Shown here piece after piece: positions 2,573-18,398 of a stretch of DNA of 18,700 nucleotides. This DNA comes from Candidatus Bathyarchaeum sp. Lineage in GTDB: Archaea > Thermoproteota > Bathyarchaeia > Bathyarchaeales > Bathyarchaeaceae. The stretch covers positions 1 through 18,700 of the forward strand of contig JAOZIF010000161.1 of assembly GCA_026014495.1 (NCBI GenBank), written 5' to 3'. Below the pieces are notes generated by a model. It was given only the letters and a program-made list of their open reading frames with translations. It did no database searches and was not told the DNA's origin. Both the position numbers and the translations under genes were made by a program. The first letter of the stretch is position 1. Each line of letters begins with the position of its first letter.

Positions 2573-2770
2573 TTGAGTGAATGGGATAAAGTTATACCAA
2601 AACCTAAGAGCAGGTTCTATAGAATAAAGTGCCCTGACTGTGGGAATGAGCAGTTCGTTTTCAGTCACGCTACTACCTCTGTACACTGTAACGTATGTCA
2701 GGCTGTCTTGGCGGAACCTTCTGGCGGAAAGGCAACCGTCAAAGGCGAAATTACTGCGGTGTTAGAGTAA
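2573..2770 (+). CDS. rps27e: 30S ribosomal protein S27e
   Basis: PKPKSRFYRIKCPDCGNEQFVFSHA...CNVCQAVLAEPSGGKA. GGGGTGA SD-like sequence upstream of the TTG start. Confidence 0.96.
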   Translation: MSEWDKVIPKPKSRFYRIKCPDCGNEQFVFSHATTSVHCNVCQAVLAEPSGGKATVKGEITAVLE

Positions 2771-2790
2771 AAAAGAAGGAAAATAGAAAA

Positions 2791-3603: not shown

Positions 3604-3619
3604 GTTATGCTCTGGATTT

Positions 3620-3670
3620 TTTAGAAAAAGGTAGTTTTCAACAATGTACTTCTATTAGTCTCCTAATATG
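3620..3670. repeat. Dispersed intergenic repeat, copy 1
   Basis: Core 3634-3670 GTTTTCAACAATGTACTTCTATTAGTCTCCTAATATG is 36/37 identical to 17010-17046 and 34/37 identical to 17695-17731. The upstream AGAAAAA flank is also shared. Confidence 0.9.
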
Positions 3671-3808
3671 TGCATGAGACTTAGATTTTGTACACGTTTC
3701 TACTGGTGTGCGCGTCTTATTATTGGAAACGTAAATAGGTGTGTTCGCACAATAGGTGTGAACGTCCAGAACGTGGGCAACTAATATGTGATTTAACGGG
3801 TGTTACAA

Positions 3809-3964
3809 TTGGTTTGGCTGCTTAGAAAATGTGTAAAGTGCGAAAAATATACGCTGAGCCATGAGAACTGTCCCGTTTGTGGGGGTAAGTTGCGTGTTCC
3901 GCATCCAGCTAAATTCTCGCCTGAAGACCGTTACGCAAAGTATAGACGAGCAATGAGAGGTTAA
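3809..3964 (+). CDS. nop10: H/ACA RNP protein Nop10 (51 aa, absent from the ORF track)
   Basis: Hand translation from TTG 3809: MVWLLRKCVKCEKYTLSHENCPVCGGKLRVPHPAKFSPEDRYAKYRR. It has the Zn ribbon plus the HPAKFSPED-Y-KYR motif and the usual position between eIF2alpha and PAC2. Confidence 0.95.
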   Translation: MVWLLRKCVKCEKYTLSHENCPVCGGKLRVPHPAKFSPEDRYAKYRRAMRG

Positions 3965-3970
3965 GTTAAA

Positions 3971-4744
3971 ATGAAAACATCAATCATCAAAGAATTCGAG
4001 AAAGTTGAGTTAAAAAATCCGATTCTTTTGGAAGGGTTTCCTGGGTTGGGTATGGTGGGAAGCATAGCCACAAAATACCTTGTTAAACATTTGAATGCTA
4101 AAAAACTGGCGGTTTTGCATTCTCCTCATTTTCCGTACCATGTTATTGTCAACAAAAAAGGAAGTGCTAGGCTTCTTCGTGGGGAATTTTATTTCTGGAA
4201 AAATGAGGCTGGAGAAAACGACTTCATTTTCTTAACTGGAGACAGCCAAGCCCAGACAATTGAGGGCCAGTTTGAGGTTGCGAACAGTATTCTTGATTTT
4301 GCTGAAGCAAAAAAAGTGAAAACAATCGTAACTATTGGTGGGTACAGAAATGAAATTGAAGGTACCCCAAATGTGGTTGCAGTGTCCACAACTCCCGCTC
4401 TTTTAGAGAGGGCACTAAAAGCTAATGCGGTGCCCAGCGAGTCTGGGACTCCTATTGTTGGTACTGCTGGTTTGCTTTTAGGGTTGGCGAAATTTAGGCG
4501 TTTGGATGCTGTTTGTCTTTTGGGTGAGACTCGTGGATATTTGCCTGATCCGCGGACGGCAAAAAGTGTTATCGAAGTTCTTCAGGGGCTTTTGGGCATA
4601 TCTGTTGATTTGAAGGGTTTGGATAAGGATATAGAGCAGTCTAAAGAGATTCTAGGTAGAATGCAAGATATTGAGAAAAGACGAGTTAAATATATGCAGA
4701 AGATGCGCAGGGTAGAAGAGGAGCGCATCACCTACATTTCTTGA
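3971..4744 (+). CDS. PAC2-family proteasome assembly chaperone-like protein
   Basis: PILLEGFPGLGMVGSIA, HFP, GDSQ, TIGGY, PIVGTAGLLLG and CLLGETRGY..DP motifs; conserved neighbour of nop10. Confidence 0.88.
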   Translation: MKTSIIKEFEKVELKNPILLEGFPGLGMVGSIATKYLVKHLNAKKLAVLHSPHFPYHVIVNKKGSARLLRGEFYFWKNEAGENDFIFLTGDSQAQTIEGQFEVANSILDFAEAKKVKTIVTIGGYRNEIEGTPNVVAVSTTPALLERALKANAVPSESGTPIVGTAGLLLGLAKFRRLDAVCLLGETRGYLPDPRTAKSVIEVLQGLLGISVDLKGLDKDIEQSKEILGRMQDIEKRRVKYMQKMRRVEEERITYIS

Positions 4745-4757
4745 TGCTTTTTTGTGG

Positions 4758-6995
4758 TTAATCATAGACAACTTCGAAGACGCATACAGCTGCTGCAAAG
4801 TAAGTGTCTGAACTTACGTAGTACCAATCGAGTGTTTCAGCTTCTTGCGAGAAATATGCTGGCTCAAAGTGTTCCAGTTCAATTGTTGATGAACCATACA
4901 TAAGCATTTCTTTTGTGTACCACATCAGTTTGTACAAAACTGTGCTGTTTCCAACGTCGTTAACTACTAGTTCGTCAGAGTCTACTGTGCCATCATCACT
5001 TGTATCCACCCAATCAACTCCTAGGCTGTAATCTCCGTATTTATCATCATCTAATCCTGCAATCCGTGCCATCCATCGCCATTTTCCTTCGTCGCCATAT
5101 CCGTAATCGTTTCCGTTGTTATCGAAGGTTATGAAAATCAAGACATATTCTGAATCATAGCGTTCTAGTATTTTGATTGCTTCAGTTTCATTTGACATGT
5201 ACATTTCGCCAATGTTCCCTATCTGCGTAGTATTCACAGTACCGTTATCCGCAAGCGTTGTTACATTTCCAATAGTCGTAATCCAGTATCCGTAGTCCCA
5301 CCAAGATACCACTATACTGTTTGAGTTTAGATTGACCCGCATCCAGTTGAGCGTATCTAACCAGTCGCTGACTTGACCTCTAAGCGGTAAACTAGAAGCA
5401 GCAATGGTTGTTGGTGAATTTGCACGCTCTATAACTCTTGAATATGATGAACCACTGCTTGGCAATACAAAAGTGACTGTCAGCAAGAGGAACATCAAAA
5501 TGATAAAGCCCGCGCTGAATTCTTTGCCCACGCGCGGTCTGAAGCGCATTTTACGCCTCGGGACTTTTGGTTTCTCTCGTAGAATTGTGACAAAGGGTTT
5601 AACCAGTTCAACCAACGCTAGTGCCCATAGTATGCTAACAACGGGTGCCAAAAGCAAACTTAATCGCGCCATTGACCCTGCAAAGTATATTGCTGTTATA
5701 CCAAAGATTCCAAGGAAAATATTGCGGTTTGTAGGATTCTGCACAATAAAGAATAGACCAAGAGGTACAAATAGAATGCCTATGCCTAAATCATAGTAGA
5801 ATGTTCCCCATGTGGTTGGTCTGTGTTCCTGAACTGACTGAACCAGTTGTTGTACAGCACTTTCACCTAGCCGTTCAGTGGGGAATATTACTGAAATGAA
5901 TTTGTTTCCTAATTCTCCAACAAACCCAAGACTTGCAAGCCCAACGAACAAGATGACAATAAGCGATAAGAACCCAATTACAAAAAATGTTTTGTTTTTA
6001 GGTGTTTTGATTCGTCTAGACATCTCTAAGGTGAACAACAAGAGGAACATTCCCGCCACTGCCAAAACTGTGGGTTCTGTCAGAAATTCAATGCCTAATT
6101 TTGGTACTTGTACTGCTATAAGAAGTGCCAAGGCGAAGACTGTAGAGTATGAAATAAGAAGACGCGTTGAATATCTACGTAAAATGAGTAGAACGAAAAC
6201 AAAAACTAGTACTATTCCAAGAGGATACAGTGCCGCTCCCCAAGATGCAAAGAGATATCCTAACGATAATCCTCCAGCAACTGCGTATGTAACTGTGCTT
6301 TTAATTGACCTTTCGGGGTCAATGGACCTTAGGAAGAAAAATATGAACAAGAGTATGCCGAAGATTCCGACGGTTTCGTCGTCAAAAAAGCCAAGGGAAG
6401 TACGACTAATATATGATGAACTTAGGGCTAAAAAGAATGCTGAAAAAAGCCCAACTGATTTGCCGCCAATGTCTCTTCCTACAAAGTAGACGACCAGAAC
6501 TGTCAATGTCGCCATAATTACTGGAAATATTACACAAAAATTGAAAACTGGGTCAGCGGTTAGAGGGTGATAAACATCTGAGGTGAGGATTGCTCCTGGA
6601 GCAAGATTCAGTGCGTTAGCTATCTGATAAAAGAATGCTGCTGTTGCTGCCAGTCCAGGATAAATTACGGCTGAAACTGGATATCCTTGTGGATACCAGC
6701 TCATGGGGTCTACCCATGTTGTCCAAGAAAAGAATCCGTTATCAACCATGTAACTTGTTAAGCGGTAATGCATGTGGGGGTCAAATTCTGAGAGTTGAAA
6801 ACCCCAACGAAGAGGAAGCAGCCTAATCGTGGCAGTTATTGCAAGAATAACAAGCAGTAGTGATATGTGCAACATCGAGGAATGAGATAGCCTTAATCGA
6901 AGAGCTCCAATGCTGGTTAAGGCGTTACCTGTACTTTCTTTACTAAACATTTTTCCAATCTTCACCGCAAACCCTTCTCTCGTCAATGAAAGCAA
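4758..6995 (-). CDS. aglB: Oligosaccharyltransferase catalytic subunit AglB/STT3
   Basis: Multi-TM N-terminus with EFDP, YPGL and SVQEHRPT, then WWDYG, DNGT and DEGKWRWMARIAG. The start is uncertain: TTG 6995, GTG 6965 or ATG 6950. Confidence 0.95.
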   Translation of the reverse strand: MLSLTREGFAVKIGKMFSKESTGNALTSIGALRLRLSHSSMLHISLLLVILAITATIRLLPLRWGFQLSEFDPHMHYRLTSYMVDNGFFSWTTWVDPMSWYPQGYPVSAVIYPGLAATAAFFYQIANALNLAPGAILTSDVYHPLTADPVFNFCVIFPVIMATLTVLVVYFVGRDIGGKSVGLFSAFFLALSSSYISRTSLGFFDDETVGIFGILLFIFFFLRSIDPERSIKSTVTYAVAGGLSLGYLFASWGAALYPLGIVLVFVFVLLILRRYSTRLLISYSTVFALALLIAVQVPKLGIEFLTEPTVLAVAGMFLLLFTLEMSRRIKTPKNKTFFVIGFLSLIVILFVGLASLGFVGELGNKFISVIFPTERLGESAVQQLVQSVQEHRPTTWGTFYYDLGIGILFVPLGLFFIVQNPTNRNIFLGIFGITAIYFAGSMARLSLLLAPVVSILWALALVELVKPFVTILREKPKVPRRKMRFRPRVGKEFSAGFIILMFLLLTVTFVLPSSGSSYSRVIERANSPTTIAASSLPLRGQVSDWLDTLNWMRVNLNSNSIVVSWWDYGYWITTIGNVTTLADNGTVNTTQIGNIGEMYMSNETEAIKILERYDSEYVLIFITFDNNGNDYGYGDEGKWRWMARIAGLDDDKYGDYSLGVDWVDTSDDGTVDSDELVVNDVGNSTVLYKLMWYTKEMLMYGSSTIELEHFEPAYFSQEAETLDWYYVSSDTYFAAAVCVFEVVYD

Positions 6996-7168
6996 TGAAC
7001 CCTTTATTTTTCTTGTGGTATTCCACTCTTGCTAGCCCTCTTCTTTGGATAAAGGAATATTTTAATTTTTTAATTTTACCTCAAATAAATGCGTGATAGA
7101 CAGCAACTTGAATCCAAAACCTATGACTTGACCTGCAGATGCCGCGCCAATTATCTTTTTGGCTAACT

Positions 7169-7291
7169 TTATTTTTTGATTACCTTTGGAACGTATATTA
7201 TGCAGCACCCACACATTGGGCATTGCCTAGGCTCGACTTTGCTGTCGGTGTTCCATTTTTTTCCACACTTCATACATACCCATTCTACCAT
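7169..7291 (-). CDS. 40-aa Zn-ribbon protein, RpoP/Rpo12-like pattern (absent from the ORF track)
   Basis: Hand translation: MVEWVCMKCGKKWNTDSKVEPRQCPMCGCCIIYVPKVIKK, with a CxxCG...CPxCG pattern. Confidence 0.6.
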   Translation of the reverse strand: MVEWVCMKCGKKWNTDSKVEPRQCPMCGCCIIYVPKVIKK

Positions 7292-7297
7292 GTTTTA

Positions 7298-7399
7298 TCA
7301 CATCTTTAGAATTGTTGTATCATCCTTGGGGCACTTAATTTTTTCCATCAAAAACTTGGAAGTATCAGCAAAGATCCTTGTATGACTGCTAAACGCCAT
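7298..7399 (-). CDS. Possible 33-aa micro-ORF
   Basis: MAFSSHTRIFADTSKFLMEKIKCPKDDTTILKM. Its ATG overlaps the upstream stop (TGATG) and it ends 6 nt before the next ATG. No recognisable motif. Confidence 0.25.
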   Translation of the reverse strand: MAFSSHTRIFADTSKFLMEKIKCPKDDTTILKM

Positions 7400-7581
7400 C
7401 AACGCTTTTTGCCTGTGTTGCTTGCAGCTCTTACCTCAACTTTTTTTGGTACAAAAGAGATTTTTTTGCTGCATTTAGGACATTTACCATCATGAGTTTG
7501 AATTATCTCATCTGGGGGCTTCAATTCTGTGCCTTCGTATAGAACAAAACCGCATTTCTCACAAATTACCTGTTGAGGCAA
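7399..7581 (-). CDS. Small Zn-ribbon protein of unknown function
   Basis: From TTG 7581: MPQQVICEKCGFVLYEGTELKPPDEIIQTHDGKCPKCSKKISF, with two CxxC pairs. The ORF track start at 7623 is probably too long. Confidence 0.7.
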   Translation of the reverse strand: MPQQVICEKCGFVLYEGTELKPPDEIIQTHDGKCPKCSKKISFVPKKVEVRAASNTGKKR

Positions 7582-7788
7582 CGTTTCACAGCCCTTGTAG
7601 ACCGAAATACAATCATTACACACTATTTATATATTACGACGAAATGCAAAAGCTCGCCAGAAACACTTTCTTGTTTCCTATACGTACATTGGAACACTCG
7701 AAATGCTGGTTCTGGTGAACTGCGAATATAACTTACACCTCATTTATAGGCTCTTGAATGCTTGAAAAAACATGGACTGAATACATCG

Positions 7789-9867
7789 ATGGAAAACTAC
7801 ACACTAATAGTTACCGAAAAACCTGATGCTGCTAAAAGAATAGCTCAAGCCCTTGACCATCAAGGCAAACCAAAGAATCTTAAAAAAAATGGTGTGCCCT
7901 ACTTTATTGCCCAAAGAGACCGACAGCTTGTTGTTGTTCCTGCAATCGGACACCTTTACACTATTGTTCAAGAACAAGGAAAACGAAGCCATTATCCTGT
8001 ATTTAACTTCAAGTGGGCACCAAGGCACTTGGCAGAGAGAGGTGCAAAGGGCATTCGTAATTGGGTTGAAACGTTTTCAGAGCTGTCTGCAGATGCTGAC
8101 GAGTTTGTGTCAGCCTGCGACTACGACATTGAAGGCAGCCTAATTGGTTATTGCATACTAAAATTCGCTTGCGGCAACAAGGAAGCTTCAGCTAAAAGAA
8201 TGAAATTTTCCACTCTCATGAAAAGCGAGTTAGAACAAGCCTACGAAGAGCTTCTACCTCATTTGGATTTTAATCTTATAGCCGCTGGAAGAACCCGACA
8301 CGAAGTTGACTGGTTATACGGCATAAACCTATCACGAGCATTAACCTTGGCGGCACATAACTGGAGCGGCAGCTACTACACCTTGAGCACTGGAAGAGTT
8401 CAAGGTCCAACCCTTCAGTTTCTGACTAAAAGGGAGAAAGCAATCAGCAGCTTTGTGCCGACACCCTACTGGCAACTATACTGTGAGGCTGAAATCCAAA
8501 CCTCTGTTGTTGAGGCAGAATATGAAAAAAAACGGATTGAAACGCGGGCAGAAGCAGACGCTATTGTGCACTCCTGCACAGACAAACTGGGAACAGTCAC
8601 AAACGTTACCCTTAGAACAGTTCACCAGAAGCCTCCACTTCCATTCGATGTAGGCACCTTGCAGCGAGAAGCCTACAGTCTTTTCGGCTATACTCCTAGG
8701 CGCACCTTAACAATCGCTCAGCGCCTATATCTCGACGCTTTGATTTCCTACCCTAGAACAAGCAGCCAGAAACTTCCTCCAATCATAGGCTACAAAAAGA
8801 TTCTCAGTTCCCTACAGCGACAAGCTGGTTACAAAAATTTAGCCTCAAAACTTCTAGAAAAACAAGAATTGAAGCCACGAGAGGGCGCTAAACAAGACCC
8901 TGCCCATCCTGCTGTTTATCCCACAGGGAAACTGCCCGAAAAACCTCTGAAAACCCCTGAGAAGAGAATTTGGGACCTTATTGTCAGACGGTTCATGGCT
9001 GTCTTTGGAGTTGATGCACTCAAGGAGAGTCTAAAAGCACATCTAGACGTGAACGATCACAGCTTCTTTGTGAGGGGCAGACGCCTTCTAAAAGACGGTT
9101 GGATGGAATACTACAAGCCATACGTTCGTGCTGAGCAAGTGCTCTTGCCCCCCATAAAGCAAGGCGATACCGTTCGGATGCGGCGGATCATGCGAGAAGA
9201 CAAGTTCACCTGCCCCCCATCTCGTTACAATCCAAGTAGTCTGCTAAAGAAGATGGAGGAGCTTGGAATTGGAACAAAGGCGACCCGAGCAGACATAATT
9301 CAAACTCTCTATAAACGTGGATACGTTAAAGACGAACGAATCACAGTAACCGAGCTGGGCTTTGATGTTATTGGTGTCCTAGACAGGTATGCTCCTACTG
9401 TAACTTCGGCAAAGCTCACTAGAGAACTTGAGGCTAAAATGGAACAAATCCAAAGCAATACAATGAATCGAGAAACTGTTCTCGCAGAGGTTGTTGAACA
9501 ACTCAAACCCCAGCTTGAACACTTCAAAGAAAACAAAGAAACTATCGGTGAAGCCTTAACCCAAGCCACCAAAAAAGCACAAACACATGAACGAATCGTG
9601 GGACGCTGCCCAAACTGTGGCACAGGTGACCTAACAATTATTTATTCGCGAACAACAAAAAAGCGCTTCATAGGCTGCACCAACTATTTCAAAGGCATCT
9701 GCACAACATCTTTTCCTCTTCCCCAGCGTGGAACAATCAAACCAACAGGAAAAACTTGCAAAGCTTGTGGATGGCCTTATGTTCTGGTTTGGCTCAAAGG
9801 CAGAAAGCCTTGGAACCTGTGTTTTAACCCAAACTGTTCCCTTAAAACAAAGAGGAAAAAACCATGA
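7789..9867 (+). CDS. topA: Type IA DNA topoisomerase with C-terminal Zn ribbons
   Basis: TOPRIM LIVTEKP, GHL, CDYDIEG, GRVQGPTL, catalytic ISYPRT, AHPAVYPT, GIGTKATRA, and C4 zinc ribbons at the C-terminus. ATG 7789 is preferred over TTG 7762. Confidence 0.96.
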   Translation: MENYTLIVTEKPDAAKRIAQALDHQGKPKNLKKNGVPYFIAQRDRQLVVVPAIGHLYTIVQEQGKRSHYPVFNFKWAPRHLAERGAKGIRNWVETFSELSADADEFVSACDYDIEGSLIGYCILKFACGNKEASAKRMKFSTLMKSELEQAYEELLPHLDFNLIAAGRTRHEVDWLYGINLSRALTLAAHNWSGSYYTLSTGRVQGPTLQFLTKREKAISSFVPTPYWQLYCEAEIQTSVVEAEYEKKRIETRAEADAIVHSCTDKLGTVTNVTLRTVHQKPPLPFDVGTLQREAYSLFGYTPRRTLTIAQRLYLDALISYPRTSSQKLPPIIGYKKILSSLQRQAGYKNLASKLLEKQELKPREGAKQDPAHPAVYPTGKLPEKPLKTPEKRIWDLIVRRFMAVFGVDALKESLKAHLDVNDHSFFVRGRRLLKDGWMEYYKPYVRAEQVLLPPIKQGDTVRMRRIMREDKFTCPPSRYNPSSLLKKMEELGIGTKATRADIIQTLYKRGYVKDERITVTELGFDVIGVLDRYAPTVTSAKLTRELEAKMEQIQSNTMNRETVLAEVVEQLKPQLEHFKENKETIGEALTQATKKAQTHERIVGRCPNCGTGDLTIIYSRTTKKRFIGCTNYFKGICTTSFPLPQRGTIKPTGKTCKACGWPYVLVWLKGRKPWNLCFNPNCSLKTKRKKP

Positions 9868-10076
9868 AATGCATAATTTGCGACAGAGACACCAAAAAGA
9901 CCTATTGCGTGTTCCATGACAAAGCATACCAAAATGTTGTTCACAATTTCGAAGATTGGAAACTTGCTGCAGCCGTTTCTTGGAAGGAATATTTAAAAGC
10001 TGTTGTGGAGAATTCATACACAGGCACTTGGGCAAAAGAAGTTGCAGAGCACTTATTGAAAAAAAAGGATGAATAA
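9864..10076 (+). CDS. Small hypothetical protein with C-x2-C...C-x2-H motif, coupled to topA
   Basis: ATGA overlap with the topA stop; MKCIICDRDTKKTYCVFH. Confidence 0.7.
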   Translation: MKCIICDRDTKKTYCVFHDKAYQNVVHNFEDWKLAAAVSWKEYLKAVVENSYTGTWAKEVAEHLLKKKDE

Positions 10077-10079
10077 ACT

Positions 10080-10499
10080 ATGGCTAAAGGTTTCAGCAAA
10101 CAAATTTCCTCTATTGCCTTTTCATTACAAAAAACATACGAGAAAATACTTACCGCAAAGCCCTCCTTAACGATTGTTGCCCTTGCAGCTGTCGGTGTTT
10201 CACTATTCTTGCTTGCCGGAGGAATATATGACATCATGACTCAGCCCATCGCAGCGTACGTAACTTCAGCTGGCGAGATAGTTGCCTTTTATCCATATGG
10301 AATAACTGAACAGTTGCTCCTAGAAAGCGTAATTGTAATGCTCTTTTATGCACTGGGAGTCGTGGGCTTTCTTATAGCATATCGAAGCACAAAGTACGCT
10401 TATACTCCAAGTCAAGCATACAGGTTCCTGCTGATTGGCGCTGTTTTGCTCCTTATATCCTATGTTTTGCTAGAACAAAATCTGCTAGCCAATTTCTAG
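10080..10499 (+). CDS. OSTC/DC2-like (OST3/OST6 family) three-TM membrane protein
   Basis: FLLAGGIYDIMTQP, VAFYPYGITEQLLLES, LGVVGFLIAYRS and LLIG match the recalled DC2 pattern FLITGGIIYDVIVEP / VAF..Y....QYIMEG / GGLGFII..RS / LLFIG. By-eye comparison only. Confidence 0.7.
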   Translation: MAKGFSKQISSIAFSLQKTYEKILTAKPSLTIVALAAVGVSLFLLAGGIYDIMTQPIAAYVTSAGEIVAFYPYGITEQLLLESVIVMLFYALGVVGFLIAYRSTKYAYTPSQAYRFLLIGAVLLLISYVLLEQNLLANF

Positions 10500-10535
10500 C
10501 ACCCTTTTTGTGCTATTCTTTAACGTGGCGTAGCA

Positions 10536-11078
10536 TCAACTGCTTTTTCCTTTGTTTTTCATGTTCAACAGAGCCGCCCCTAGATTTGTTATCAGATGTA
10601 TTGGGATTGTTACCAGAAGAATAATTCCTGCCTCTAGCAAGGAAGGAGGAGAAACTGGAATGGAAAAAAGGAATGCTCCTAAAATGAAGTCTAGCTGGTC
10701 TGCTATTGGAAGGGAGCTTCCGGGAGAGCGGTTTAGTCGCCGTTTAGCAAACGATTCTATCAGGTCACCTGTTAAGGCTCCTAGAGAGAGCATAAATCCA
10801 AGCACAATGCTATATTGAAACTGGGGGCTATACTGAATGAGAACCTGCTCGAAGATGACTGTTTGAGCGAAACCAACTAATGTTCCAACAACAAGACCTG
10901 CAACAAAGCCTCTGAATGTCTTGTGGGAACCAAGTACAGGTTTGCCATCAAAAAAAATTTTACCAAAGTCCATGGGCTTGCCGCCGCCAAAGATAACAGG
11001 TGCTGCGTTGGCGCAGTAAGCTGGGAAAATAAACCACATAGCGGCGGCGATATCGATTAGCGTTATCATGGTTCTCAT
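10536..11078 (-). CDS. carS: CDP-archaeol synthase
   Basis: PAYCANAAPVIFGGGKPMDFGK, GSHKTFRG, GDLIESFAKRR and DQLDF motifs. Start is ATG 11078 or 11069. Confidence 0.92.
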   Translation of the reverse strand: MRTMITLIDIAAAMWFIFPAYCANAAPVIFGGGKPMDFGKIFFDGKPVLGSHKTFRGFVAGLVVGTLVGFAQTVIFEQVLIQYSPQFQYSIVLGFMLSLGALTGDLIESFAKRRLNRSPGSSLPIADQLDFILGAFLFSIPVSPPSLLEAGIILLVTIPIHLITNLGAALLNMKNKGKSS

Positions 11079-11106
11079 CCTTTATTCTTAATGGAAGAAA
11101 ATAACT

Positions 11107-11799
11107 CTAGTGTCTGTAATCGCTTATTCCTGTGTTCTCTATCTTAACGTAAGTGTACCCTGTTCCCTTGATTTTAGGATGCTTTTCACGTAAAACTTTG
11201 ATGACCCGTGTTTGACTTGTCTGCCGCATGTCAAGCACAATATCTGACCAATAGTTTAGGACTCGCGTTGCCACCGGCTTCATTTCAACAGTTTCTCCGC
11301 GAAGAACACTTCTCACCTGACTGATAGCCAGAACTGCTACTCCCCGCGTTTTGGCTATCTGTGTCAAAACCGCTAGTTGCCTGTTTAATTCACGGTTTGC
11401 GGCGTATGTTTCTTGTGTGCCGCTTAGTTCAACGCGATACAGTGACGTGACCGTGTCGACAACTATTAATCCAAATTTGTTTGTTATGACCTTTTCAAGA
11501 TGGTCTATTGCTTTTGCCTGTTCCTGAAATGTTGTCGGTCTCATGATAATCATGAGTGGCGAAATTTTTTCATAATCGTAATCTGCTATCTGTGACAGCC
11601 GTTCATAGGAGAATGTTCCATCCGTATCTATGAAAAGGGATTTGATTCCTCTGCGTGCACAATTAACTGCGCACTGAACCGCGAGGGATGTTTTGCCTGT
11701 TTCTGCTTCTCCATAGATGAGAAAGACGCCTTCAGCAGGGAATCCTCCTCCTAATAGTTTGTCCAGCGAAATGCAACCTGTTTGAACAAAATTTTGCAA
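11107..11799 (-). CDS. radB: RadB-like RecA-family ATPase
   Basis: TGCISLDKLLGGG, Walker A GEAETGKT, FIDTDG, Walker B LIVVDTV, ISQVRS and a C-terminal KH motif. Single-domain length, lacking the RadA N-terminal domain. Confidence 0.8.
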   Translation of the reverse strand: MQNFVQTGCISLDKLLGGGFPAEGVFLIYGEAETGKTSLAVQCAVNCARRGIKSLFIDTDGTFSYERLSQIADYDYEKISPLMIIMRPTTFQEQAKAIDHLEKVITNKFGLIVVDTVTSLYRVELSGTQETYAANRELNRQLAVLTQIAKTRGVAVLAISQVRSVLRGETVEMKPVATRVLNYWSDIVLDMRQTSQTRVIKVLREKHPKIKGTGYTYVKIENTGISDYRH

Positions 11800-11975
11800 T
11801 CTCTCTACACAAGAAGCGAAGTAACCCTTCAGGAATTATAAGGCTTGTCTATTGTTCCTGTTTTATTGGTTGTTATTTCGTAACATATTTAAGCGGAAAA
11901 AAGACAGGAAAGTCACGCAGGGTTCAAAGTTATGCACAACCGCAGCTCTCCATTGTCTAATCAGCTTTTCTTTGC

Positions 11976-12644
11976 GTGGAATGTGGAAAGTGTAATAGTG
12001 TGAAGACGAAAATAGCTGTTGCAACTGTAAATGGAAGAGCCTATTACGAGCTTGTGAATGAACTGCAAAATAAGAGGTTACCCTTCTTGAGCCTCAAACC
12101 ATGGGATCCTGTTCCCCTAAACGTCAAGGTTGTTCTAACCACAGAAGAGGAGAGTAGCCAGATTTCACATCCTAGAAAGTTACATTTCAAGTTGGGGTCA
12201 AACCCTGAATCTGTGGTAGATGAGGCAGTTTTGATTATTCAGGGAAAGCAAGGCTACGAAAAAGTTGTTATTGGTGTGGACCCCGGCAAAACTTGTGGCA
12301 TAGCCATTCTAGGCGACAGTAAAGTGATAGAAACCTTGACTGCCTCGAGCGTCGAAGAAGCATCATGCCTTATTGTAGACAGCTTAAAGCGGTTTCCAGC
12401 AGAAGTTAGAGTGGTGCGGGTGGGAGATGGAACTCCAGAATACACCAAAACATTGCTTGATTTATTGGATTCTGGTTTGCCAGAAGAGACTTTGGTTGAG
12501 ATTGTCCGTGAGGCTGGGACAAGTCGGACTGCAAGCAGTTCTGTTAACCGCAGAGTGTTAAGGGACACTGTTTCTGCCATAAAAATTGCGGGAAGAAACG
12601 GTCAAATATTTTCGAGGAGGAGCTTTCATGAAGCATGTTGTTGA
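11976..12644 (+). CDS. Hypothetical protein with C-terminal RNase H-like (RuvC/YqgF-type) fold
   Basis: VVIGVDPGKTCGIAILGD beta-strand motif with conserved Asp, then VRVGDG, EAGTS and RD..SA..IA. Start is GTG 11976 or 12000. Confidence 0.6.
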   Translation: MECGKCNSVKTKIAVATVNGRAYYELVNELQNKRLPFLSLKPWDPVPLNVKVVLTTEEESSQISHPRKLHFKLGSNPESVVDEAVLIIQGKQGYEKVVIGVDPGKTCGIAILGDSKVIETLTASSVEEASCLIVDSLKRFPAEVRVVRVGDGTPEYTKTLLDLLDSGLPEETLVEIVREAGTSRTASSSVNRRVLRDTVSAIKIAGRNGQIFSRRSFHEACC

Positions 12645-13911
12645 TGCAGGAAAGACTTTGCTTGTTGATGGTCCTGCTTGTGTGAGCGTTCTCTCTGGAA
12701 ATGTGAGTGTTCTTGGAGCGCTTTTGCCTCTTGAAAAGAATCTTGTTGTCAGGGAAGGAAAACGGTTGCCTTTGTGGGTAAACGAAATGGCTACTGTTGA
12801 GTTGATGCTTGGAGAAGGAGCTTGTATCAACGAGGTTGCCGAAGGAACGGTTCCTTCTTCATGGGATGAAGCTGTAAAGGAGCTTTTGGCTTTGGATAAA
12901 CCAGTAACTGTCATGGTTATGGGTGGAGTGGATTCGGGCAAGACAAGTTTTTGCACTTTTCTTGTGAATTCAGCGGTTATGGCAGATTTGAGAACAGGAG
13001 TTATCGATGCTGATTTGGGGCAGTCTGATGTGGGACCGCCCTCGACTGTGGGATTTAGTTTAGTGAATCAGCCAGTAAAGGACCTTTTTGAGCTTGAGGC
13101 TCAGTGCACGGTTTTTGTTGGCTCGACGAGTCCAAGTGGGTCAATAAGTAAGGTTGTTGATGGGTTGGCTTGTTTGAAAGATAGAGTGCTAGTTGCAGGC
13201 TTGGATTTTCTTGTTATAAATACTGACGGCTGGGTCGAAGGTAAAGAAGCGTCCGCGTATAAAGTTGGGTTAGTAGACGCTGTTGGTTCTAGTGCAGTTG
13301 TTGGAATTCAACAGGGAAACGAGTTGACCCCTGTACTAGATTCTTTGCGCAGCATCAAGACTTTTGTTATAGATTCTCCGCAGCTTATTCAGCCACGGAG
13401 TAGAGAAAAAAGGAAACTTTTGCGGAAACTTAGTTACAAAAAGTATCTGAAAGGGGCAAAGATGCAGTCTTTTTCTTTTAGTTGGATTAAAGTTGAGGAT
13501 TCTCTTTTGGGTGCTGGCGCTCCACTGCACCATAAACGTTTGAATGCGTTGACTAATCTGCTTGGGACAAGACCCATCTACTCTGAAGAAAGTATAGGTG
13601 CAATTCTTGCTGTGCTAAAGAAAAGTGAAAAAGTTACAGAGACGCAGATAAACGATGCAATAGAGCACTTTGGAAAACCAGTCAAAGTAATACGTGAGGG
13701 CGACGAGCAGGGATTGCTTGTGGGACTAAAAGGTGAAGAAGACACTTTTTTGGGAATAGGTGTACTACATGAGGTTGACTACAAGCGAAAAGCCCTGAAA
13801 GTCTATACTCCTGTTGTCGAAAAAGTGTACAAGCTATGTTTTGGGCAGATAAAACTAAACAAAAACTTCAGAGAAATCGGCTTAAGCACGGTGTACTCTG
13901 TGAATCTTTAG
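12628..13911 (+). CDS. Clp1/Grc3/Nol9-family polynucleotide 5'-hydroxyl kinase
   Basis: VMVMGGVDSGKTSF (Walker A), IDADLGQSDVGPP and VINTDGWVEG. GAGGAGG SD before ATG 12628; overlaps the upstream gene by 17 nt. Confidence 0.88.
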   Translation: MKHVVDAGKTLLVDGPACVSVLSGNVSVLGALLPLEKNLVVREGKRLPLWVNEMATVELMLGEGACINEVAEGTVPSSWDEAVKELLALDKPVTVMVMGGVDSGKTSFCTFLVNSAVMADLRTGVIDADLGQSDVGPPSTVGFSLVNQPVKDLFELEAQCTVFVGSTSPSGSISKVVDGLACLKDRVLVAGLDFLVINTDGWVEGKEASAYKVGLVDAVGSSAVVGIQQGNELTPVLDSLRSIKTFVIDSPQLIQPRSREKRKLLRKLSYKKYLKGAKMQSFSFSWIKVEDSLLGAGAPLHHKRLNALTNLLGTRPIYSEESIGAILAVLKKSEKVTETQINDAIEHFGKPVKVIREGDEQGLLVGLKGEEDTFLGIGVLHEVDYKRKALKVYTPVVEKVYKLCFGQIKLNKNFREIGLSTVYSVNL

Positions 13912-13980
13912 TTGCCTGTGTTTGAAAATACTAAATAGATGTTTTATCTTTGTCATTAACTGGACAGGGAGAGTCTCAGG

Positions 13981-14340
13981 TTGTCACGAGCAAAGATTAG
14001 TAAAGAAGAGTTGGTTGAGGAAGACACATCTTTTTTTGCTGTTTACATTGAAACAAAAAATGCAAACCAGTTGTTTTTGAGTGAAACTGAAGACAAGTTG
14101 GGCACCTTGGCTGTGGCTATGCCGCAACCAAAGAACTTGGTTGGCTCGCCTCTTTCTTCGGTGCTGCTTGGAGACCGAAACATGATGGTTGCTCGCCTGT
14201 TAGCTGAGCTTCTTGCTCAACAAACAGGTAAAATCAGTTTAGTTTCAGTTTTCACAAAATCTGTTACCGAACAGCAAGCTGCCTCTATTCTTCGTAAACT
14301 AATGGATAAGGTTCTCAAAAAAGAGGAAGAAACAAACTGA
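13981..14340 (+). CDS. PAC4 (PSMG4/Pba4)-like proteasome assembly chaperone candidate
   Basis: LGTLAVAMP...PLSSVLLGD...LLAELLAQQTGKISLVS matches the recalled PSMG4 pattern LRNLAVAM...PVSTSLLGD...GLAQRLARKTNKQVFVS. Similar length, about 120 aa. By-eye comparison only. Confidence 0.62.
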   Translation: MSRAKISKEELVEEDTSFFAVYIETKNANQLFLSETEDKLGTLAVAMPQPKNLVGSPLSSVLLGDRNMMVARLLAELLAQQTGKISLVSVFTKSVTEQQAASILRKLMDKVLKKEEETN

Positions 14341-14505
14341 ATCTCTAAAGTTTTTGTGTCTACGATTTTTGTTAAAACCCGCAACACCTTAACTGTTTGT
14401 TTTTGTTTGCTGGCAACAATGGTTGCTTGTTGTGTTTGTTTTTTTGCAGCCAACACATATATTGCACCTATTCTATGTAGTTTTGGAATTCCGGAGGAAC
14501 CGTTG

Positions 14506-15885
14506 ATGAATTTCGACGTTATAATCGTGGGCGCTGGTCCGGCTGGAATCTTTTCTGCTCTTGAGTTAGCTGACAAAACAGACCTTAGTGTGTTGCTGTT
14601 GGATAAAGGTCGAGCTATTGATAAACGCAAATGTCCTGCAAGCAGAGGTTTAGGTTGCCTGAACTGTGACCCGTGCTCTTTGTTGGCTGGTTGGGGGGGC
14701 GCCGGCGCTTTTAGTGATGGTAAACTTACTTTGTCCACTGAAGTTGGTGGCTGGCTTAATGAGTACTGCACGCAAGAGCAGCTTTGGGAGCTTTTGCATT
14801 ATGTTGACGATGTTTACATCAAGTTTGGGGCTACTAAACATCTTTATGGCGTTGGACCCGAAAAGTTTGATGAAATTGAACGAAAAGCTTCTCTTGCTGG
14901 GTTGAAGCTTGTTTCTCAGAAAGTTCGGCATATGGGCACTGAAAAATGTGCTGAGACTCTTCTTAAGATGCGTAGTCATCTTGAGGGCAGGGTTGATATT
15001 CGAACTGGAACAGACGTGAAGAGCCTTTTAATAAAAGACGGTAAAGTTGAAGGCGTCGAGACGACAAAGGGCGAAAAGTTCTACGGAACATATGTTATTG
15101 TGGCGCCTGGCAGAATTGGCGCCGAGTGGCTCAAGACTGAGGCAGAGCTTTTGGGTCTAAAAACCTTGAACAATCCTGTTGACATTGGCGTGCGGGTGGA
15201 GCTTCAAGCCGCTGTCATGGAAGAACTAACTAAGACCCTCTATGAGCCTAAGCTGATTTATCACTCAAAATCGTTTGACGATCAGGTGCGAACGTTTTGT
15301 GTTTCGCCTTTAGGAGAAGTTATCACCGAATCATATGATGGCGTCTTAACCGTGAATGGTCAGAGCTACGCTGAGCGGAAAACAAAAAACACAAACTTTG
15401 CCATCCTTGTTAGCACATCCTTCACAGAACCCTTCAGGGAACCCATAGCATACGGAAAATACATTGCAAGGCTTTCAAACTTGCTTAGTGGAGGCGTGAT
15501 TGTTCAGCGGCTAGGTGACCTAAAGGCTGGACGACGCTCAACAGAGGAGCGAATAAAACGGAGCTTGTGTGTTCCAACCCTCAAGAATGCCACGCCTGGG
15601 GACCTTAGCTTTGTTTTGCCCTACCGTTATCTTGCTGACATCAAGGAGATGCTTCAGGCACTGGATAAGGTGTCTCCGGGTGTATACTCAAATGATACGC
15701 TGCTTTATGGTGTTGAAGTGAAGTTCTATTCCACAAGGCTTGAGTTGACTGACCAGCTGGAAACAAGGATTAAGAACATGTTTACTATCGGCGATGGCGC
15801 TGGAGTAAGCCGTGGTCTGATTCAGGCTTCTGCTTCTGGAGTTATAGTTGCTAAGGAGATTGCGAAGCGGGCAAAGAAGCAGTAA
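14506..15885 (+). CDS. FAD-dependent oxidoreductase/dehydrogenase of unknown substrate
   Basis: Rossmann DVIIVGAGPAG, GWGGAGAFSDGKL, NPVDIGVRVE, RTFC, VNG.S, TNFAIL, YGVEVKFYS and IGDGAGVSRG. GGAGG SD before ATG 14506; the ORF track N-terminal extension is probably spurious. Confidence 0.85.
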   Translation: MNFDVIIVGAGPAGIFSALELADKTDLSVLLLDKGRAIDKRKCPASRGLGCLNCDPCSLLAGWGGAGAFSDGKLTLSTEVGGWLNEYCTQEQLWELLHYVDDVYIKFGATKHLYGVGPEKFDEIERKASLAGLKLVSQKVRHMGTEKCAETLLKMRSHLEGRVDIRTGTDVKSLLIKDGKVEGVETTKGEKFYGTYVIVAPGRIGAEWLKTEAELLGLKTLNNPVDIGVRVELQAAVMEELTKTLYEPKLIYHSKSFDDQVRTFCVSPLGEVITESYDGVLTVNGQSYAERKTKNTNFAILVSTSFTEPFREPIAYGKYIARLSNLLSGGVIVQRLGDLKAGRRSTEERIKRSLCVPTLKNATPGDLSFVLPYRYLADIKEMLQALDKVSPGVYSNDTLLYGVEVKFYSTRLELTDQLETRIKNMFTIGDGAGVSRGLIQASASGVIVAKEIAKRAKKQ

Positions 15886-15893
15886 ACTGTTTT

Positions 15894-15971
15894 TGGTGGG
15901 ACCGCCCGGATTTGAACCGGGGTCCCGAACGTCCGAGGCTCAGAGCCTAGACCATGCTAGCCGACGGTCCC
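15894..15971 (-). tRNA. tRNA-Pro (anticodon CGG), intronless, CCA encoded
   Basis: Hand fold: acceptor GGGACCG/CGGTCCC, D stem GGCT/GGCT, anticodon arm TGAGC-CTCGGAC-GTTCG, T arm CCCGG-TTCAAAT-CCGGG, then A73 and CCA. The scaffold resembles TACK tRNA-Pro. Confidence 0.88.
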
Positions 15972-16095
15972 TTTGTGGATTCTTTGATGCGTCATGTTTT
16001 AGATAAGGATTCTTGTGGGCTGTTGTTTTTTTGGTTTGGGCTTTTGGGGTGTGAAAAAAAAGAAGGTTTTTATATTGTAACCCCGTTTTCGGGGT

Positions 16096-16416
16096 ATGCA
16101 ACTAATATTCGACATTGACCCCAATTGGTTTGTGCTCTTTTTTGGCTTTTTAGGGGCTTGGGCAGTTCTAATTGTTAACAGAAAACGTAGTGGTAAGCAG
16201 AACAATTTTAAGGAGCAGGTTTACTTGGCGGCGGCTGGACTGACTTCGATGGTTCTCATGGAGCTTTTTGCAACCCAAACTGATTTGTGGCATTACCTTC
16301 CAGGCGATTGGCCAATAATTTTGTGGCCTACCTATGTTGCTGCTATACTGTTTGGGCATCAATTGTTGCGGTTTATAGAAGAACATGTTACCTTAAAGGG
16401 CACAAAGATGTGCTAA
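16096..16416 (+). CDS. Small membrane protein of unknown function (about 3 TM)
   Basis: Three hydrophobic segments, with an E..A....LWHY....WP motif in the loop. Confidence 0.6.
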   Translation: MQLIFDIDPNWFVLFFGFLGAWAVLIVNRKRSGKQNNFKEQVYLAAAGLTSMVLMELFATQTDLWHYLPGDWPIILWPTYVAAILFGHQLLRFIEEHVTLKGTKMC

Positions 16417-16425
16417 AAAAAGCTG

Positions 16426-16572
16426 TTATTTGTCGGCGAATTTGCTTCTGTTTCTTTTGAATTTCTTTTTGCATTTTACGCTGCAGAAGTAGTATTTTTC
16501 TCCGTCGTGGGTTATCTTGTATTTGGCTGTTTTTTCGTTTAGTATTACTCCGCATACTGGGTCTCTAGGCAT
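16426..16572 (-). CDS. YHS/TRASH-domain small metal-binding protein (48 aa, absent from the ORF track)
   Basis: Hand translation: MPRDPVCGVILNEKTAKYKITHDGEKYYFCSVKCKKKFKRNRSKFADK, with DPVCG and YYFCS..C...F motifs. Confidence 0.88.
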   Translation of the reverse strand: MPRDPVCGVILNEKTAKYKITHDGEKYYFCSVKCKKKFKRNRSKFADK

Positions 16573-16772
16573 TAGTTTTCCTTCACTGACCAAATGTAAA
16601 CGGCATTAGATAAGCTCTTTGCACGTTATTCGTTTATTTTACACAATTTTAGGGAAAAATTGCTGTTTGGGGGACTAAGTGGTGCGTTTTCAGGTAATAT
16701 TTAATAGCTGCTCTTGTTATCGAGAAGTTGTGTTATGCACCAATTTGTTTGCTGTTTAGGGAGGAAATGTTG

Positions 16773-16961
16773 ATGGCGGATGTTAAAGTTGGAGATAAAA
16801 TGAAGATTCCAGTTCACAGTGTTTTTCATCAAGAAGCTGGACATGTAGGTAAGGTTGTGTACATCAGCGAAGACGGCGAAACCGTAACCGTCAAATGTGA
16901 CCGCAAACACGGCGGCAAAACAGTCGCATTCAACATCGCGCTTGTACCAAGAGACCTATAA
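16773..16961 (+). CDS. 62-aa beta-rich protein, possibly SH3/KOW-like
   Basis: GGAGG SD before ATG 16773; MADVKVGDKMKIP...GKVVYISEDGETVTVKC. Confidence 0.65.
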   Translation: MADVKVGDKMKIPVHSVFHQEAGHVGKVVYISEDGETVTVKCDRKHGGKTVAFNIALVPRDL

Positions 16962-16992
16962 CCCGCACCTTTTCAGGTGTGCTTAAGGCAGT

Positions 16993-17046
16993 TTTTCAGA
17001 AAAAAGCTAGTTTTCAACAATGTACCTCTATTAGTCTCCTAATATG
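16993..17046. repeat. Dispersed intergenic repeat, copy 2
   Basis: TTTTCAGAAAAAAGCTA followed by the core 17010-17046 GTTTTCAACAATGTACCTCTATTAGTCTCCTAATATG. Confidence 0.9.
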
Positions 17047-17068
17047 CTTGTTTTGTCTTTTTTTTGGG

Positions 17069-17632
17069 TTAGTGTTGGTGTTCTATGATTCCGTATTCTC
17101 CAGTGACTGAGTCCTGAAACAGTTCTATGTGGGGTGGGTAGAACGTGAAGACAACAAATAAGACCGCCAAAACAGCCAAAGCGATTAATGAAAGCCATTC
17201 TGTCCTTTTTGGAAGCTGTTTGTAGGTTAATATTTTGTAGCTTAGAACTTGTCCAATTATTACTGCTATGATGAAGCTTAGGATGTCTATTGCAAAGATG
17301 CTTTCTCCTGTAATGCTGGTGTAGCCGTAGAATATGGCTGGTATGACAAGGATTATCGAGTATGCTGCTGCGGTTTTTGCTAAAAAGAAGTTGTTTGTCT
17401 GCTTTTTTATGAGAAAATATTCGATTATTGTGTACAGTATGATTGGCCAGACGCCTAGTTTGAGGTGTTCCCATACGCTTTCGTTTACGGCAGAGAATGC
17501 GCCAACTATTGGGTTATAGCCAGACCATTCAAAAGTAAAATGAAGTGCTCCTCCAAGAAGAGAAACAAAAAGCATTCCAAACAGTTCATAACGTAGTATG
17601 ATCCCTTTTTGGGTTGCAGCCATAAAAATCAC
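17069..17632 (-). CDS. DUF6512-like membrane protein
   Basis: GGALHFTFEWSG...GAFSAVNESVWEHLKL motif and about 5 TM segments; family name from memory. Start is GTG 17632 or ATG 17623. Confidence 0.65.
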   Translation of the reverse strand: MIFMAATQKGIILRYELFGMLFVSLLGGALHFTFEWSGYNPIVGAFSAVNESVWEHLKLGVWPIILYTIIEYFLIKKQTNNFFLAKTAAAYSIILVIPAIFYGYTSITGESIFAIDILSFIIAVIIGQVLSYKILTYKQLPKRTEWLSLIALAVLAVLFVVFTFYPPHIELFQDSVTGEYGIIEHQH

Positions 17633-17678
17633 TAACTACTATTATAGTCGAAAAACGGATTTAAGGTTTCACAACAAA

Positions 17679-17731
17679 TTTCAGAAAAAACCATGTTTTC
17701 AACAATGTTCTGCTATTAGTTTCCTAATATG
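17679..17731. repeat. Dispersed intergenic repeat, copy 3
   Basis: TTTCAGAAAAAACCAT followed by the core 17695-17731 GTTTTCAACAATGTTCTGCTATTAGTTTCCTAATATG. Confidence 0.9.
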
Positions 17732-17732
17732 T

Positions 17733-18398
17733 TTAGTTTGTTTTTGTTCTTGCTTGTGTTATTAGGTCTGTTAGTGCTGCGAAGGCTTTGCTTACGTCTT
17801 CCATTGCTAGTATGATTATTGTTTCTGTGTAGCAGCTCATTGTTTCTTCTATGTTGATGTGGCGTCTTGAGATTGCATTGTAGAAGGCTTGTACACACCC
17901 GGGCGTAGAGGTTATCTGGTCTGGGCTGCGGATGATTATTGTTGCCAGATTCTGTTTTTGGTCTATGACATCTTTTTTGGTGAATATGGCGCTGATTTTG
18001 TTGAATGAATTCAGGTCAGAAATCAGGGTAACTATGCTGTTTCCTTCTATTACTTGAAGAAAGTCGCCTGAGAATGTGGCTAAGGTTTTTCGTATTTTTT
18101 CTTGAGTTTCTTTGGTTTTTTCGACAGAAACTTTTGCCATATCTGTTCTGATGTTTAAGCCGCTTTGTGCAACGACTCGTGTTATTTTTCCTTGCAGGAT
18201 TGTGTAGTTTGTTTTGGCGCGTTTTACTGCGGTTATTATGCTTTCGAGGTTGACTGTGCTGTCGGATGTTTCTTTTATTTTTGGTGTTAGCATTCTGGCT
18301 ATGGCGCTGTAGTTTGCGTAGTCTCTTTGCAGGGCATCCTGTAGGGAGAGGTCTTCGTCTATGAGGTTTTGGACGGTTTTCGAGATAGAATTGACCAT
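17733..18398 (-). CDS. Archaeal ACT-domain protein with N-terminal helical/HTH-like region, putative amino-acid-responsive regulator
   Basis: N-terminal LQDALQRDYANYSAIARML...ESIITAVKR and C-terminal ACT-like TPGCVQAFYNAISRRHINIEETMSCYTETIIIL. Confidence 0.72.
   Translation of the reverse strand: MVNSISKTVQNLIDEDLSLQDALQRDYANYSAIARMLTPKIKETSDSTVNLESIITAVKRAKTNYTILQGKITRVVAQSGLNIRTDMAKVSVEKTKETQEKIRKTLATFSGDFLQVIEGNSIVTLISDLNSFNKISAIFTKKDVIDQKQNLATIIIRSPDQITSTPGCVQAFYNAISRRHINIEETMSCYTETIIILAMEDVSKAFAALTDLITQARTKTN

Follow-up and report, generated by a model that had tools for sequence, protein, structure and literature searches.

An 18,700-nucleotide (nt) stretch of a Candidatus Bathyarchaeum genome (contig JAOZIF010000161.1 of assembly GCA_026014495.1; the whole stretch is called the window below) carries three copies of a short intergenic repeat built around the dyad TATTAG-N4-CTAATA, raising the question of whether this repeat acts as a folded RNA, as a mobile or recombining piece of DNA, or as a site read by a protein. 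An initial annotation of the window had favored selection on a single-stranded hairpin with a GNRA loop and minus-strand polarity, and had also named an element like a repetitive extragenic palindrome (REP) or a transposable element of the miniature inverted-repeat type (MITE), a recombination site, and a plain dimeric transcription factor site. We find that the three copies are members of a ~60-nt repeat family with about 110 copies in this genome, that the family acts at the DNA level as judged from its pattern of conservation, and that its positions coincide with breaks in gene order. With moderate confidence, we read the family as a probably protein-bound boundary element resembling REPs and bacterial interspersed mosaic elements (BIMEs), equipped with oligo-T runs, whose dyad end is also a hot spot for insertion and rearrangement.

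The genome holding the window (G000, in which the window is contig C101; other G-numbers denote further genomes of the genus) is a 93% complete metagenome-assembled genome (MAG) of 2.19 Mb in 196 contigs with 41% G+C. Its topoisomerase shares 76 to 81% identity with those of MAGs labelled Bathyarchaeia, Bathyarchaeota, or Ca. Bathyarchaeum. The core pattern matched this genome 80 times at up to three mismatches (44 forward and 36 reverse, against none for the reversed pattern) and 101 times at up to eight substitutions, and an nhmmer profile found 109 copies at E<1e-5 plus 7 more at E<1e-2. The whole-genome count called for by the initial annotation thus shows the family to be real and far larger than three. 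At the strict setting, the pattern was present in 19 of 24 other species of the genus and in none of 16 genomes from other genera, with 0 to 92 matches per genome. A sequence-only covariance model, built from 40 copies and used across the genus and the order, was positive in all 15 sampled genomes of the genus, including those without a strict match, and in 14 of the 56 genera of the order, the 13 genera beyond Bathyarchaeum having one to nine matches each. The family is lineage specific: it is confined to a single order of Bathyarchaeia and has grown to about 100 copies in each genome of the genus. In a species-representative collection the exact pattern occurs at more than 110 loci, all labelled Bathyarchaeia or Bathyarchaeota except for two short contigs. 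These two, CAYQWZ010000012.1 (L137) and CAXXNY010000019.1 (L191), have an exact match to the 34-nt core and are binned as Saccharibacteria and Christensenellaceae; they are probably mis-binned contigs of Bathyarchaeia. No published description of the family was found in the literature on Bathyarchaeia repeats, MITEs, and intergenic palindromic repeats; REP-like palindromes are reported for archaea in general by a survey tool of 2025, which makes no mention of Bathyarchaeia (PMC12306157).

The three copies were the top-ranked repeat family in a repeat search of the window, and a degenerate 37-nt core pattern matched the window at these three places only and never in 200 dinucleotide shuffles. 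Their cores (3634-3670, 17010-17046, and 17695-17731) are all in the same orientation and all intergenic, as initially described, and the parts of each copy are as follows.

3614-3671, plus strand: copy 1, of the short type, matched by the covariance model at C101:3614-3671.
3617-3622 and 3625-3629, plus strand: T-run and A-run of copy 1 (left boxes), separated by AG.
3634-3645 and 3646-3652, plus strand: box A (GTTTTCAACAAT) and variable linker of copy 1.
3653-3668 and 3669-3670, plus strand: dyad TATTAG-TCTC-CTAATA and TG of copy 1.
16990-17048, plus strand: copy 2, the best match of the covariance model (69.8 bits).
16992-16996 and 17000-17005, plus strand: T-run and A-run of copy 2, separated by CAG.
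17010-17021, 17022-17028, 17029-17044, and 17045-17046, plus strand: box A, linker, dyad, and TG of copy 2.
17679-17731, plus strand: copy 3, a pattern match.
17679-17681 and 17685-17690, plus strand: T-run and A-run of copy 3, separated by CAG.
17695-17706 and 17714-17729, plus strand: box A and dyad TATTAG-TTTC-CTAATA of copy 3.

All three have the TATTAG/CTAATA arms and the GAAAA...TTTTC feature that were first noted. Core identity is 36/37 between copies 1 and 2, 34/37 between copies 1 and 3, and 33/37 between copies 2 and 3; the upper value of the initially reported range of 34 to 36 was correct, and its lower value was one too high.

A consensus from 225 unique copies of several species shows how the unit is built. 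Its left part, T(2-6)-C-W-G-A(5-7), amounts to a TTTTC-W-GAAAA dyad plus an A-tract and is followed by four variable nucleotides; its right part consists of the near-invariant GTTTTCAACAAT, seven variable nucleotides, TATTAG-N4-CTAATA, and TG, a box architecture with a ATTAGTCTCCTAAT dyad. One end of the element is thus TTTTCWGAAAA... (the T/A-run end) and the other is ...CTAATATG (the dyad or ATATG end), with no inverted-repeat relation between them. Across the 225 copies the boxes are invariant, and the spacers between them vary in sequence at a fixed length. The T-run-CWG-A-run motif is nearly private to the family, with 37 of its 39 intergenic occurrences lying within an element, and each TATTAG-N4-CTAATA in G000 likewise belongs to an element copy, some of them degenerate or truncated at a contig end. 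Invariant blocks at fixed spacing with free spacers are what is expected from sequence-specific recognition of duplex DNA.

That the boxes are maintained can be followed at copy 1, which lies between aIF2alpha and nop10. A copy was detected after aIF2alpha in 19 of the 21 genus genomes with a full aIF2alpha at the locus (G000 not counted). Its side and orientation never change, and G001, G012, and G014 have two copies there, while the linker, the loop, and the remainder of the spacer differ among species. This comparison of orthologous positions shows the boxes to be under purifying selection, as judged from what is kept and what drifts. Outside the genus, in CP070759 (L059), nop10 begins at the aIF2alpha stop codon with no spacer and PAC2 comes directly after it, and two further genomes outside the genus have the same 163- to 166-nt gap. 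Given the absence of a spacer in CP070759 and the genus-wide copy, the element-bearing spacer is derived: it arose as an insertion that divided a conserved operon and has been retained since. A motif at 3720-3763, TTATTGGAAACGTAAATAGGTGTGTTCGCACAATAGGTGTGAAC, lies ~60 nt upstream of nop10 and is recognizable in 9 of 11 other genus spacers, the remaining spacer being unconserved; it looks like the TFB-recognition element (BRE)/TATA box and start region of a promoter that nop10 may have gained after the operon was split.

The same pattern of invariant boxes speaks against an RNA that must fold. In alignment A1, the 6-bp helix is 97.5% paired, yet five of the six pairs are invariant, the sixth departs by unpaired cells only, and the covariation score is 0. 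Among the 225 copies, pair 24/31 reads A.A in 11 and T.T in 11 with none compensated, only one compensatory cell occurs overall, and mutual information gives a signal between neighboring columns only. The GNRA loop is kept in the three window copies as claimed, but across the unique copies it appears on the minus strand in just 89 of 225 (40%), and the four loop positions take 38 variants, with TCTC, GCTC, TATC, GAGA, and GTTC common. The initial annotation had itself held that copies without GNRA loops would argue against an RNA structure, and on those terms the RNA reading fails. The hairpin is weak, consisting of six mostly A-U pairs at about -3.9 kcal/mol, and its folding resembles that of shuffled sequence, with z-scores of -2.08 to +1.23 and mostly near 0 for four short copies and one long form on both strands. 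A GNRA-capped 3′-untranslated hairpin or small RNA read from the minus strand would account for copies 2 and 3, which directly follow minus-strand gene stops and continue into T6-7, for a provirus copy with the same stop-then-T-run layout, and for the one of six folds that reached z=-2.1. Copy 1, however, would be antisense to such a transcript, having plus-strand genes on both sides, and copies in co-directional spacers are split 24 to 20 by orientation. Rfam, in keeping with the initial annotation, which recognized no known family, gave no match at gathering threshold in the window and none at E<=5 in 16900-17800, and only chance-level matches far below gathering (E 2.8-4.4) on the long form at E<=5. 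The results on orientation and covariation largely refute a structured RNA, which we now regard as very improbable; the proposed selection on a single-stranded hairpin of fixed polarity is not supported. Reading the units as C/D-box or H/ACA small RNAs was also rejected; no proper boxes of these RNAs were seen by eye, and the sole Rfam CD-box match scored 12.8 bits against a gathering threshold of 75.

If the family is recognized as DNA, where it sits becomes the next question. The genes around the three copies are listed here.

2695-3582, plus strand: aIF2alpha gene, next to copy 1 on its T/A-run side (Pfam EIF_2_alpha and S1).
3800-3964, plus strand: open reading frame (ORF) across the copy 1 spacer from aIF2alpha, which we take to be nop10 from its translation rather than from a family search.
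17069-17632, minus strand: DUF6512 membrane-protein gene between copies 2 and 3 (Pfam DUF6512, 3.6e-40).
17733-18398, minus strand: ACT-domain gene, its stop codon adjoining the ATATG end of copy 3.

Copy 2 lies 22 nt past the stop codon of the DUF6512 gene, and copy 3 lies 1 nt from the stop codon of the ACT-domain gene and 47 nt ahead of the DUF6512 start. Because copy 1 sits among plus-strand genes and copies 2 and 3, also in plus orientation, sit among minus-strand genes, polarity relative to transcription is inconstant even within the window. Genome-wide, with genes called simply as longest ORFs (2272 ORFs, 87% coding), 99 of 101 copies are intergenic, falling in 24 convergent, 24 and 20 co-directional (one orientation and the other), and 17 divergent spacers. 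Convergent spacers are enriched (31% vs 19% and 17% expected by spacer number and by total length), and divergent spacers are depleted relative to length (19% vs 30%), with chi-square p values of 0.014 and 0.001; orientation toward the flanking genes is random in the co-directional spacers. The ATATG end lies -8 to 27 nt from a facing stop codon in 15 of 32 short-type cases, and a stop codon falls within a dyad arm in four. Start codons are mostly more than 70 nt from the element.

This placement bears on the plain dimeric transcription factor site offered initially as an alternative: the dyad symmetry fits such a site, and the position beside stop codons and away from most start codons does not. 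From the placement and the T-tracts, it is plausible that the units serve as terminators or boundaries where transcription units end. The A-run is 5 to 7 nt long in 178 of 187 copies and reads as T5-7 on the minus strand; because the minus strand thus has oligo-T, and frequently the plus strand too, the units would probably also stop archaeal RNA polymerase. Under the boundary-element reading, one or more sequence-specific, probably dimeric host proteins would read the boxes as duplex DNA at transcription-unit ends, where the units would be putative stops for the polymerase. The family has entered new places in the past, as at the aIF2alpha-nop10 operon, and its units duplicate into tandem and mosaic forms; spread or rearrangement would probably occur by recombination at the dyad end and not through a classical transposase.

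Gene order bears on the last part of this scheme. The comparison covered 110 loci of other species that were selected for having an element, and the controls came from these loci as well; the figures below are subject to crude ORF calls, a fragmented genome, and related species that are not independent. Both homologues were adjacent or near each other in G000 for only 6 of 46 gene pairs separated by an element, against 55 of 85 pairs across element-free spacers of at least 150 nt (Fisher 7e-9), and contig ends account for just 3 of the 40 broken pairs. An element nevertheless often stays with a gene end: of 109 gene ends that face an element in another species, 54 have one at the same end of their homologue in G000, compared with 13 of 292 controls, and among the broken pairs it is kept by one partner in 22 of 40 and by both in 4 of 40. 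Linkage is stronger on the T/A-run side than on the ATATG side, both raw (49/86 vs 20/71, p=4e-4) and after de-duplication by G000 gene end (30/61 vs 15/52, p=0.035), indicating that DNA beside the dyad end is replaced more often. Element positions therefore coincide with gene-order breaks, and more so on the ATATG side. An exception to this asymmetry is seen in G006 (L332, C11), where aIF2alpha and nop10 are ~1.2 kb apart, the element stands beside nop10, and the extra DNA lies on the T/A-run side.

The extent to which the family moves is less easily read. About 34 copies in G000 are near-identical "long" forms of ~125 to 145 nt, with ...CTAATG-N3-GTGTGAAC-TTTTTTAG-TAAATGTGTGCTGTGCAG... upstream of the core and CCGCACAGAA-GTGTGAATAA downstream. 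Their left portion is a decayed unit, which makes the long forms tandem or mosaic arrangements, and C42, C59 (three units), C73, C93, and C167 carry intact tandem cores with a period of 90 to 105 nt. Further readings of the long forms or of their surroundings were rejected. A small protein encoded by the long form, where short ORFs can be seen by eye, is disfavored, without a formal test, by varying A-run lengths and by the lack of a start codon in the short form; portable promoters are not supported, since long forms point to a downstream gene start in 15 cases and to a 3′ end in 17; and GTGTGAA as a general initiator motif did not hold, 63 of its 122 intergenic occurrences lying within 120 nt of an element and the remainder having no shared promoter context.

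The long forms fit equally well a non-autonomous mobile element of MITE type, or of the type of REP doublets forming hairpins (REPINs), that is copied in trans by an unrecognized enzyme, box conservation then being conservation of enzyme recognition. Strict matches that vary from 0 to 92 per genome and genome-specific linker subfamilies (GAAGTAT dominant in G021 and G024, GTACCTC in G000) fit such an element, as do gain and loss at otherwise syntenic sites: two convergent gene pairs that are 10 to 12 nt apart in G000 hold an element in another species, and one presence/absence case runs in the opposite direction. Insertion into the ancestral aIF2alpha-nop10 operon is in keeping with mobility as well, and so is the breaking of contigs at copies. 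Several G000 contigs end within an element, indicating that the repeat fragments assembly and explaining the fragmented short-read MAGs of the group. On the other hand, a partner enzyme is missing from the searches made. The Y1/RAYT (REP-associated tyrosine transposase) family PF01797 was absent from G000 and from all 25 genus genomes, although the same search was positive in 6 of 14 control genomes; an HUH transposase in the genome was among the things that the initial annotation had proposed to look for. No TnpB or Cas1 gene was found in G000, and an IS200/IS605, RAYT, or TnpB partner was accordingly rejected. Nor does the element have terminal inverted repeats or a detectable target-site duplication, the longest word shared by the two flanks averaging 3.82 nt against 3.71+-0.09 in shuffled pairings; the word CTAGC at two empty sites, considered as a trace of a target site, was within chance. 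Separated half-elements flanking an ORF were not found in G000 (nor were Y1, TnpB, or Cas1; DDE families were not searched), in line with the assignment of every dyad to an element copy. Further, an immobile aIF2alpha-nop10 copy with intact boxes throughout the genus is not expected of a neutral MITE, and simple insertion would keep the flanking genes adjacent, which is seen in only 13%. We consider a mobile element of this kind possible but doubtful. What stands of the REP- or MITE-like element or recombination site first suggested is a dispersed repeat family with REP/BIME-like behavior; a RAYT, terminal inverted repeats, and a target duplication were not found.

A link to CRISPR, raised by the resemblance of the minus-strand core ending ...ATTGTTGAAAAC to a repeat 3′ handle, was rejected for want of Cas1 and of any array of at least three units in G000. 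The tandem units of 90 to 105 nt also share conserved "spacer" sequence, unlike the unique spacers of CRISPR.

Replacement of DNA at the dyad end raises the alternative that copies are attachment (att) sites, at which tyrosine-integrase islands or viruses enter and of which many would be empty landing pads. G000 has six Phage_integrase matches, five of them above the Pfam cut-off, and the integrase at C140:12293-13534 begins ~90 nt past the ATATG end of a copy. On this copy C137:13989-14045 and C140:13620-13673 overlap by 55 nt, and joining the two contigs puts the integrase, a 413-aa tyrosine integrase, right after the ATATG end. A homologue of the C140 integrase in G005, 71% identical, also follows a diverged copy, although its left flank and cargo are not homologous, and this recurrence supports the proposal that integrases of the C140 type integrate next to the element. 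The more frequent replacement of ATATG-side DNA, the resemblance of a dyad with a variable center to a recombinase core site, and a copy fixed within a tailed provirus in seven species would also fit. The C140 type is restricted to 4 of 25 genus genomes, however, and a general association with integrases was rejected because none of 32 other integrase loci of the genus had a copy within the ~1.5 kb fetched. The far ends of the two islands yielded no second, partial copy and no duplicated core, and the 6-bp arms and 4-bp spacer are shorter than known tyrosine-recombinase cores. Considered together, these results make an attachment-site role of the family quite unlikely.

The provirus copy itself came from a search of IMG/VR, in which the exact 34-nt pattern had no match and a shorter pattern had 52, of which 10 were true copies, all in one provirus type. 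The copy in these ten contigs has a CAAATA arm, overlaps an 84-aa ORF at its stop codon, and is located 250 nt upstream of the large-terminase gene (TerL). A tailed-provirus-like block in G000 (C113:28100-33600) has a tail protein, 135-aa and 84-aa ORFs, the element, a 111-aa ORF, a large terminase, and an ABC-type ATPase, and the IMG/VR block matches it at 80 to 87% amino-acid identity; one IMG/VR contig has a TerL 100% identical to that of G001. The block is common to nine genus genomes (loci L299 and L344-L351) at 79 to 100% TerL identity, and in seven species the position of the copy is identical. That this copy acts in packaging or as an att site is possible but unsupported, since the 111-aa ORF beside it, considered as a small terminase, had no family match; as evidence for attachment the copy is weakened by its lying within the virus gene order and not at a prophage end.

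A broader proposal, which we regard as rather unlikely, is that a dedicated site-specific recombination or DNA-joining system uses the family as its substrate and acts at the TATTAG-N4-CTAATA end, the ~100 copies being fixed joints where one transcription unit meets the next. At these joints, genes, integrase islands, and provirus DNA would be inserted or exchanged. If this were true, archaea would have a counterpart of integron or shufflon logic that spans the genome and needs no array. In a variant of the proposal, the copy upstream of the terminase would be a signal for packaging or recombination, and the host copies would mimic it. Like attB and attC sites, the family has a dyad with a variable center, one integrase family at the dyad end in two species, and single genes sometimes bracketed by direct copies, such as DUF6512. 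Unlike them, its copies lie dispersed over the 196 contigs among housekeeping genes, occur in both orientations, and form no intI-linked array, and most integrases of the genus are not beside a copy. Six other species likewise have a copy in the spacer upstream of DUF6512 (copy 3), one of them in inverted orientation, and because this upstream copy is common to seven species, DUF6512 is not a moving cassette.

The boundary-element reading has its closest precedent in the REPs and BIMEs of E. coli, Pseudomonas, and Stenotrophomonas, which likewise comprise tens to hundreds of short imperfect intergenic palindromes in both orientations. They too are found preferentially at gene 3′ ends and in convergent spacers, are grouped into tandem and mosaic clusters, keep their positions in part, and are linked to rearrangements. 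The present family differs in being archaeal and A/T-rich, with three boxes in place of one G/C-rich stem-loop, in having no RAYT (Y1) in 25 genus genomes, and in having archaeal-type oligo-T runs and a hairpin with no sign of selection for pairing. Among archaea, MITEs are represented by the Sulfolobus SM-type and haloarchaeal elements. With these the family has in common a short non-coding repeat, genome-specific subfamilies, and variable copy number, but no terminal inverted repeats, target-site duplication, or parent insertion sequence with matching ends were found for it, and single copies have been retained for long periods.

Several points weigh against the boundary-element reading. The near-identical ~125-nt long-form subfamilies within a genome and the gain and loss at otherwise syntenic sites fit a mobile element equally well. 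A terminator would not be needed by the 16 or 17 copies that lie between divergent genes, and because the plus-strand T-run beside CWG reaches at least 5 nt in only ~28% of copies, the term "bidirectional terminator" would hold for part of the family. The synteny figures carry the limits given with them (crude ORF calls, fragmentation, and non-independent species), and both protein binding of the boxes and the terminator role are predictions from the sequence pattern.

REP- and BIME-type repeats are a classic yet poorly understood feature of bacteria, and comparable archaeal families are barely documented. The family described here is kept by an entire genus within a sediment lineage that is abundant and nearly uncultured, and the searches gave no known mobilizing enzyme for it. 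Because its boxes are under selection at orthologous sites and its positions predict gene-order breaks, it can serve as a defined bait in the search for a new archaeal protein that binds or recombines DNA. In Bathyarchaeia it is also a candidate marker for the boundaries of transcription units. The window also contains a tRNA-Pro (CGG) gene on the minus strand at 15894-15971, with which no element copy is associated.

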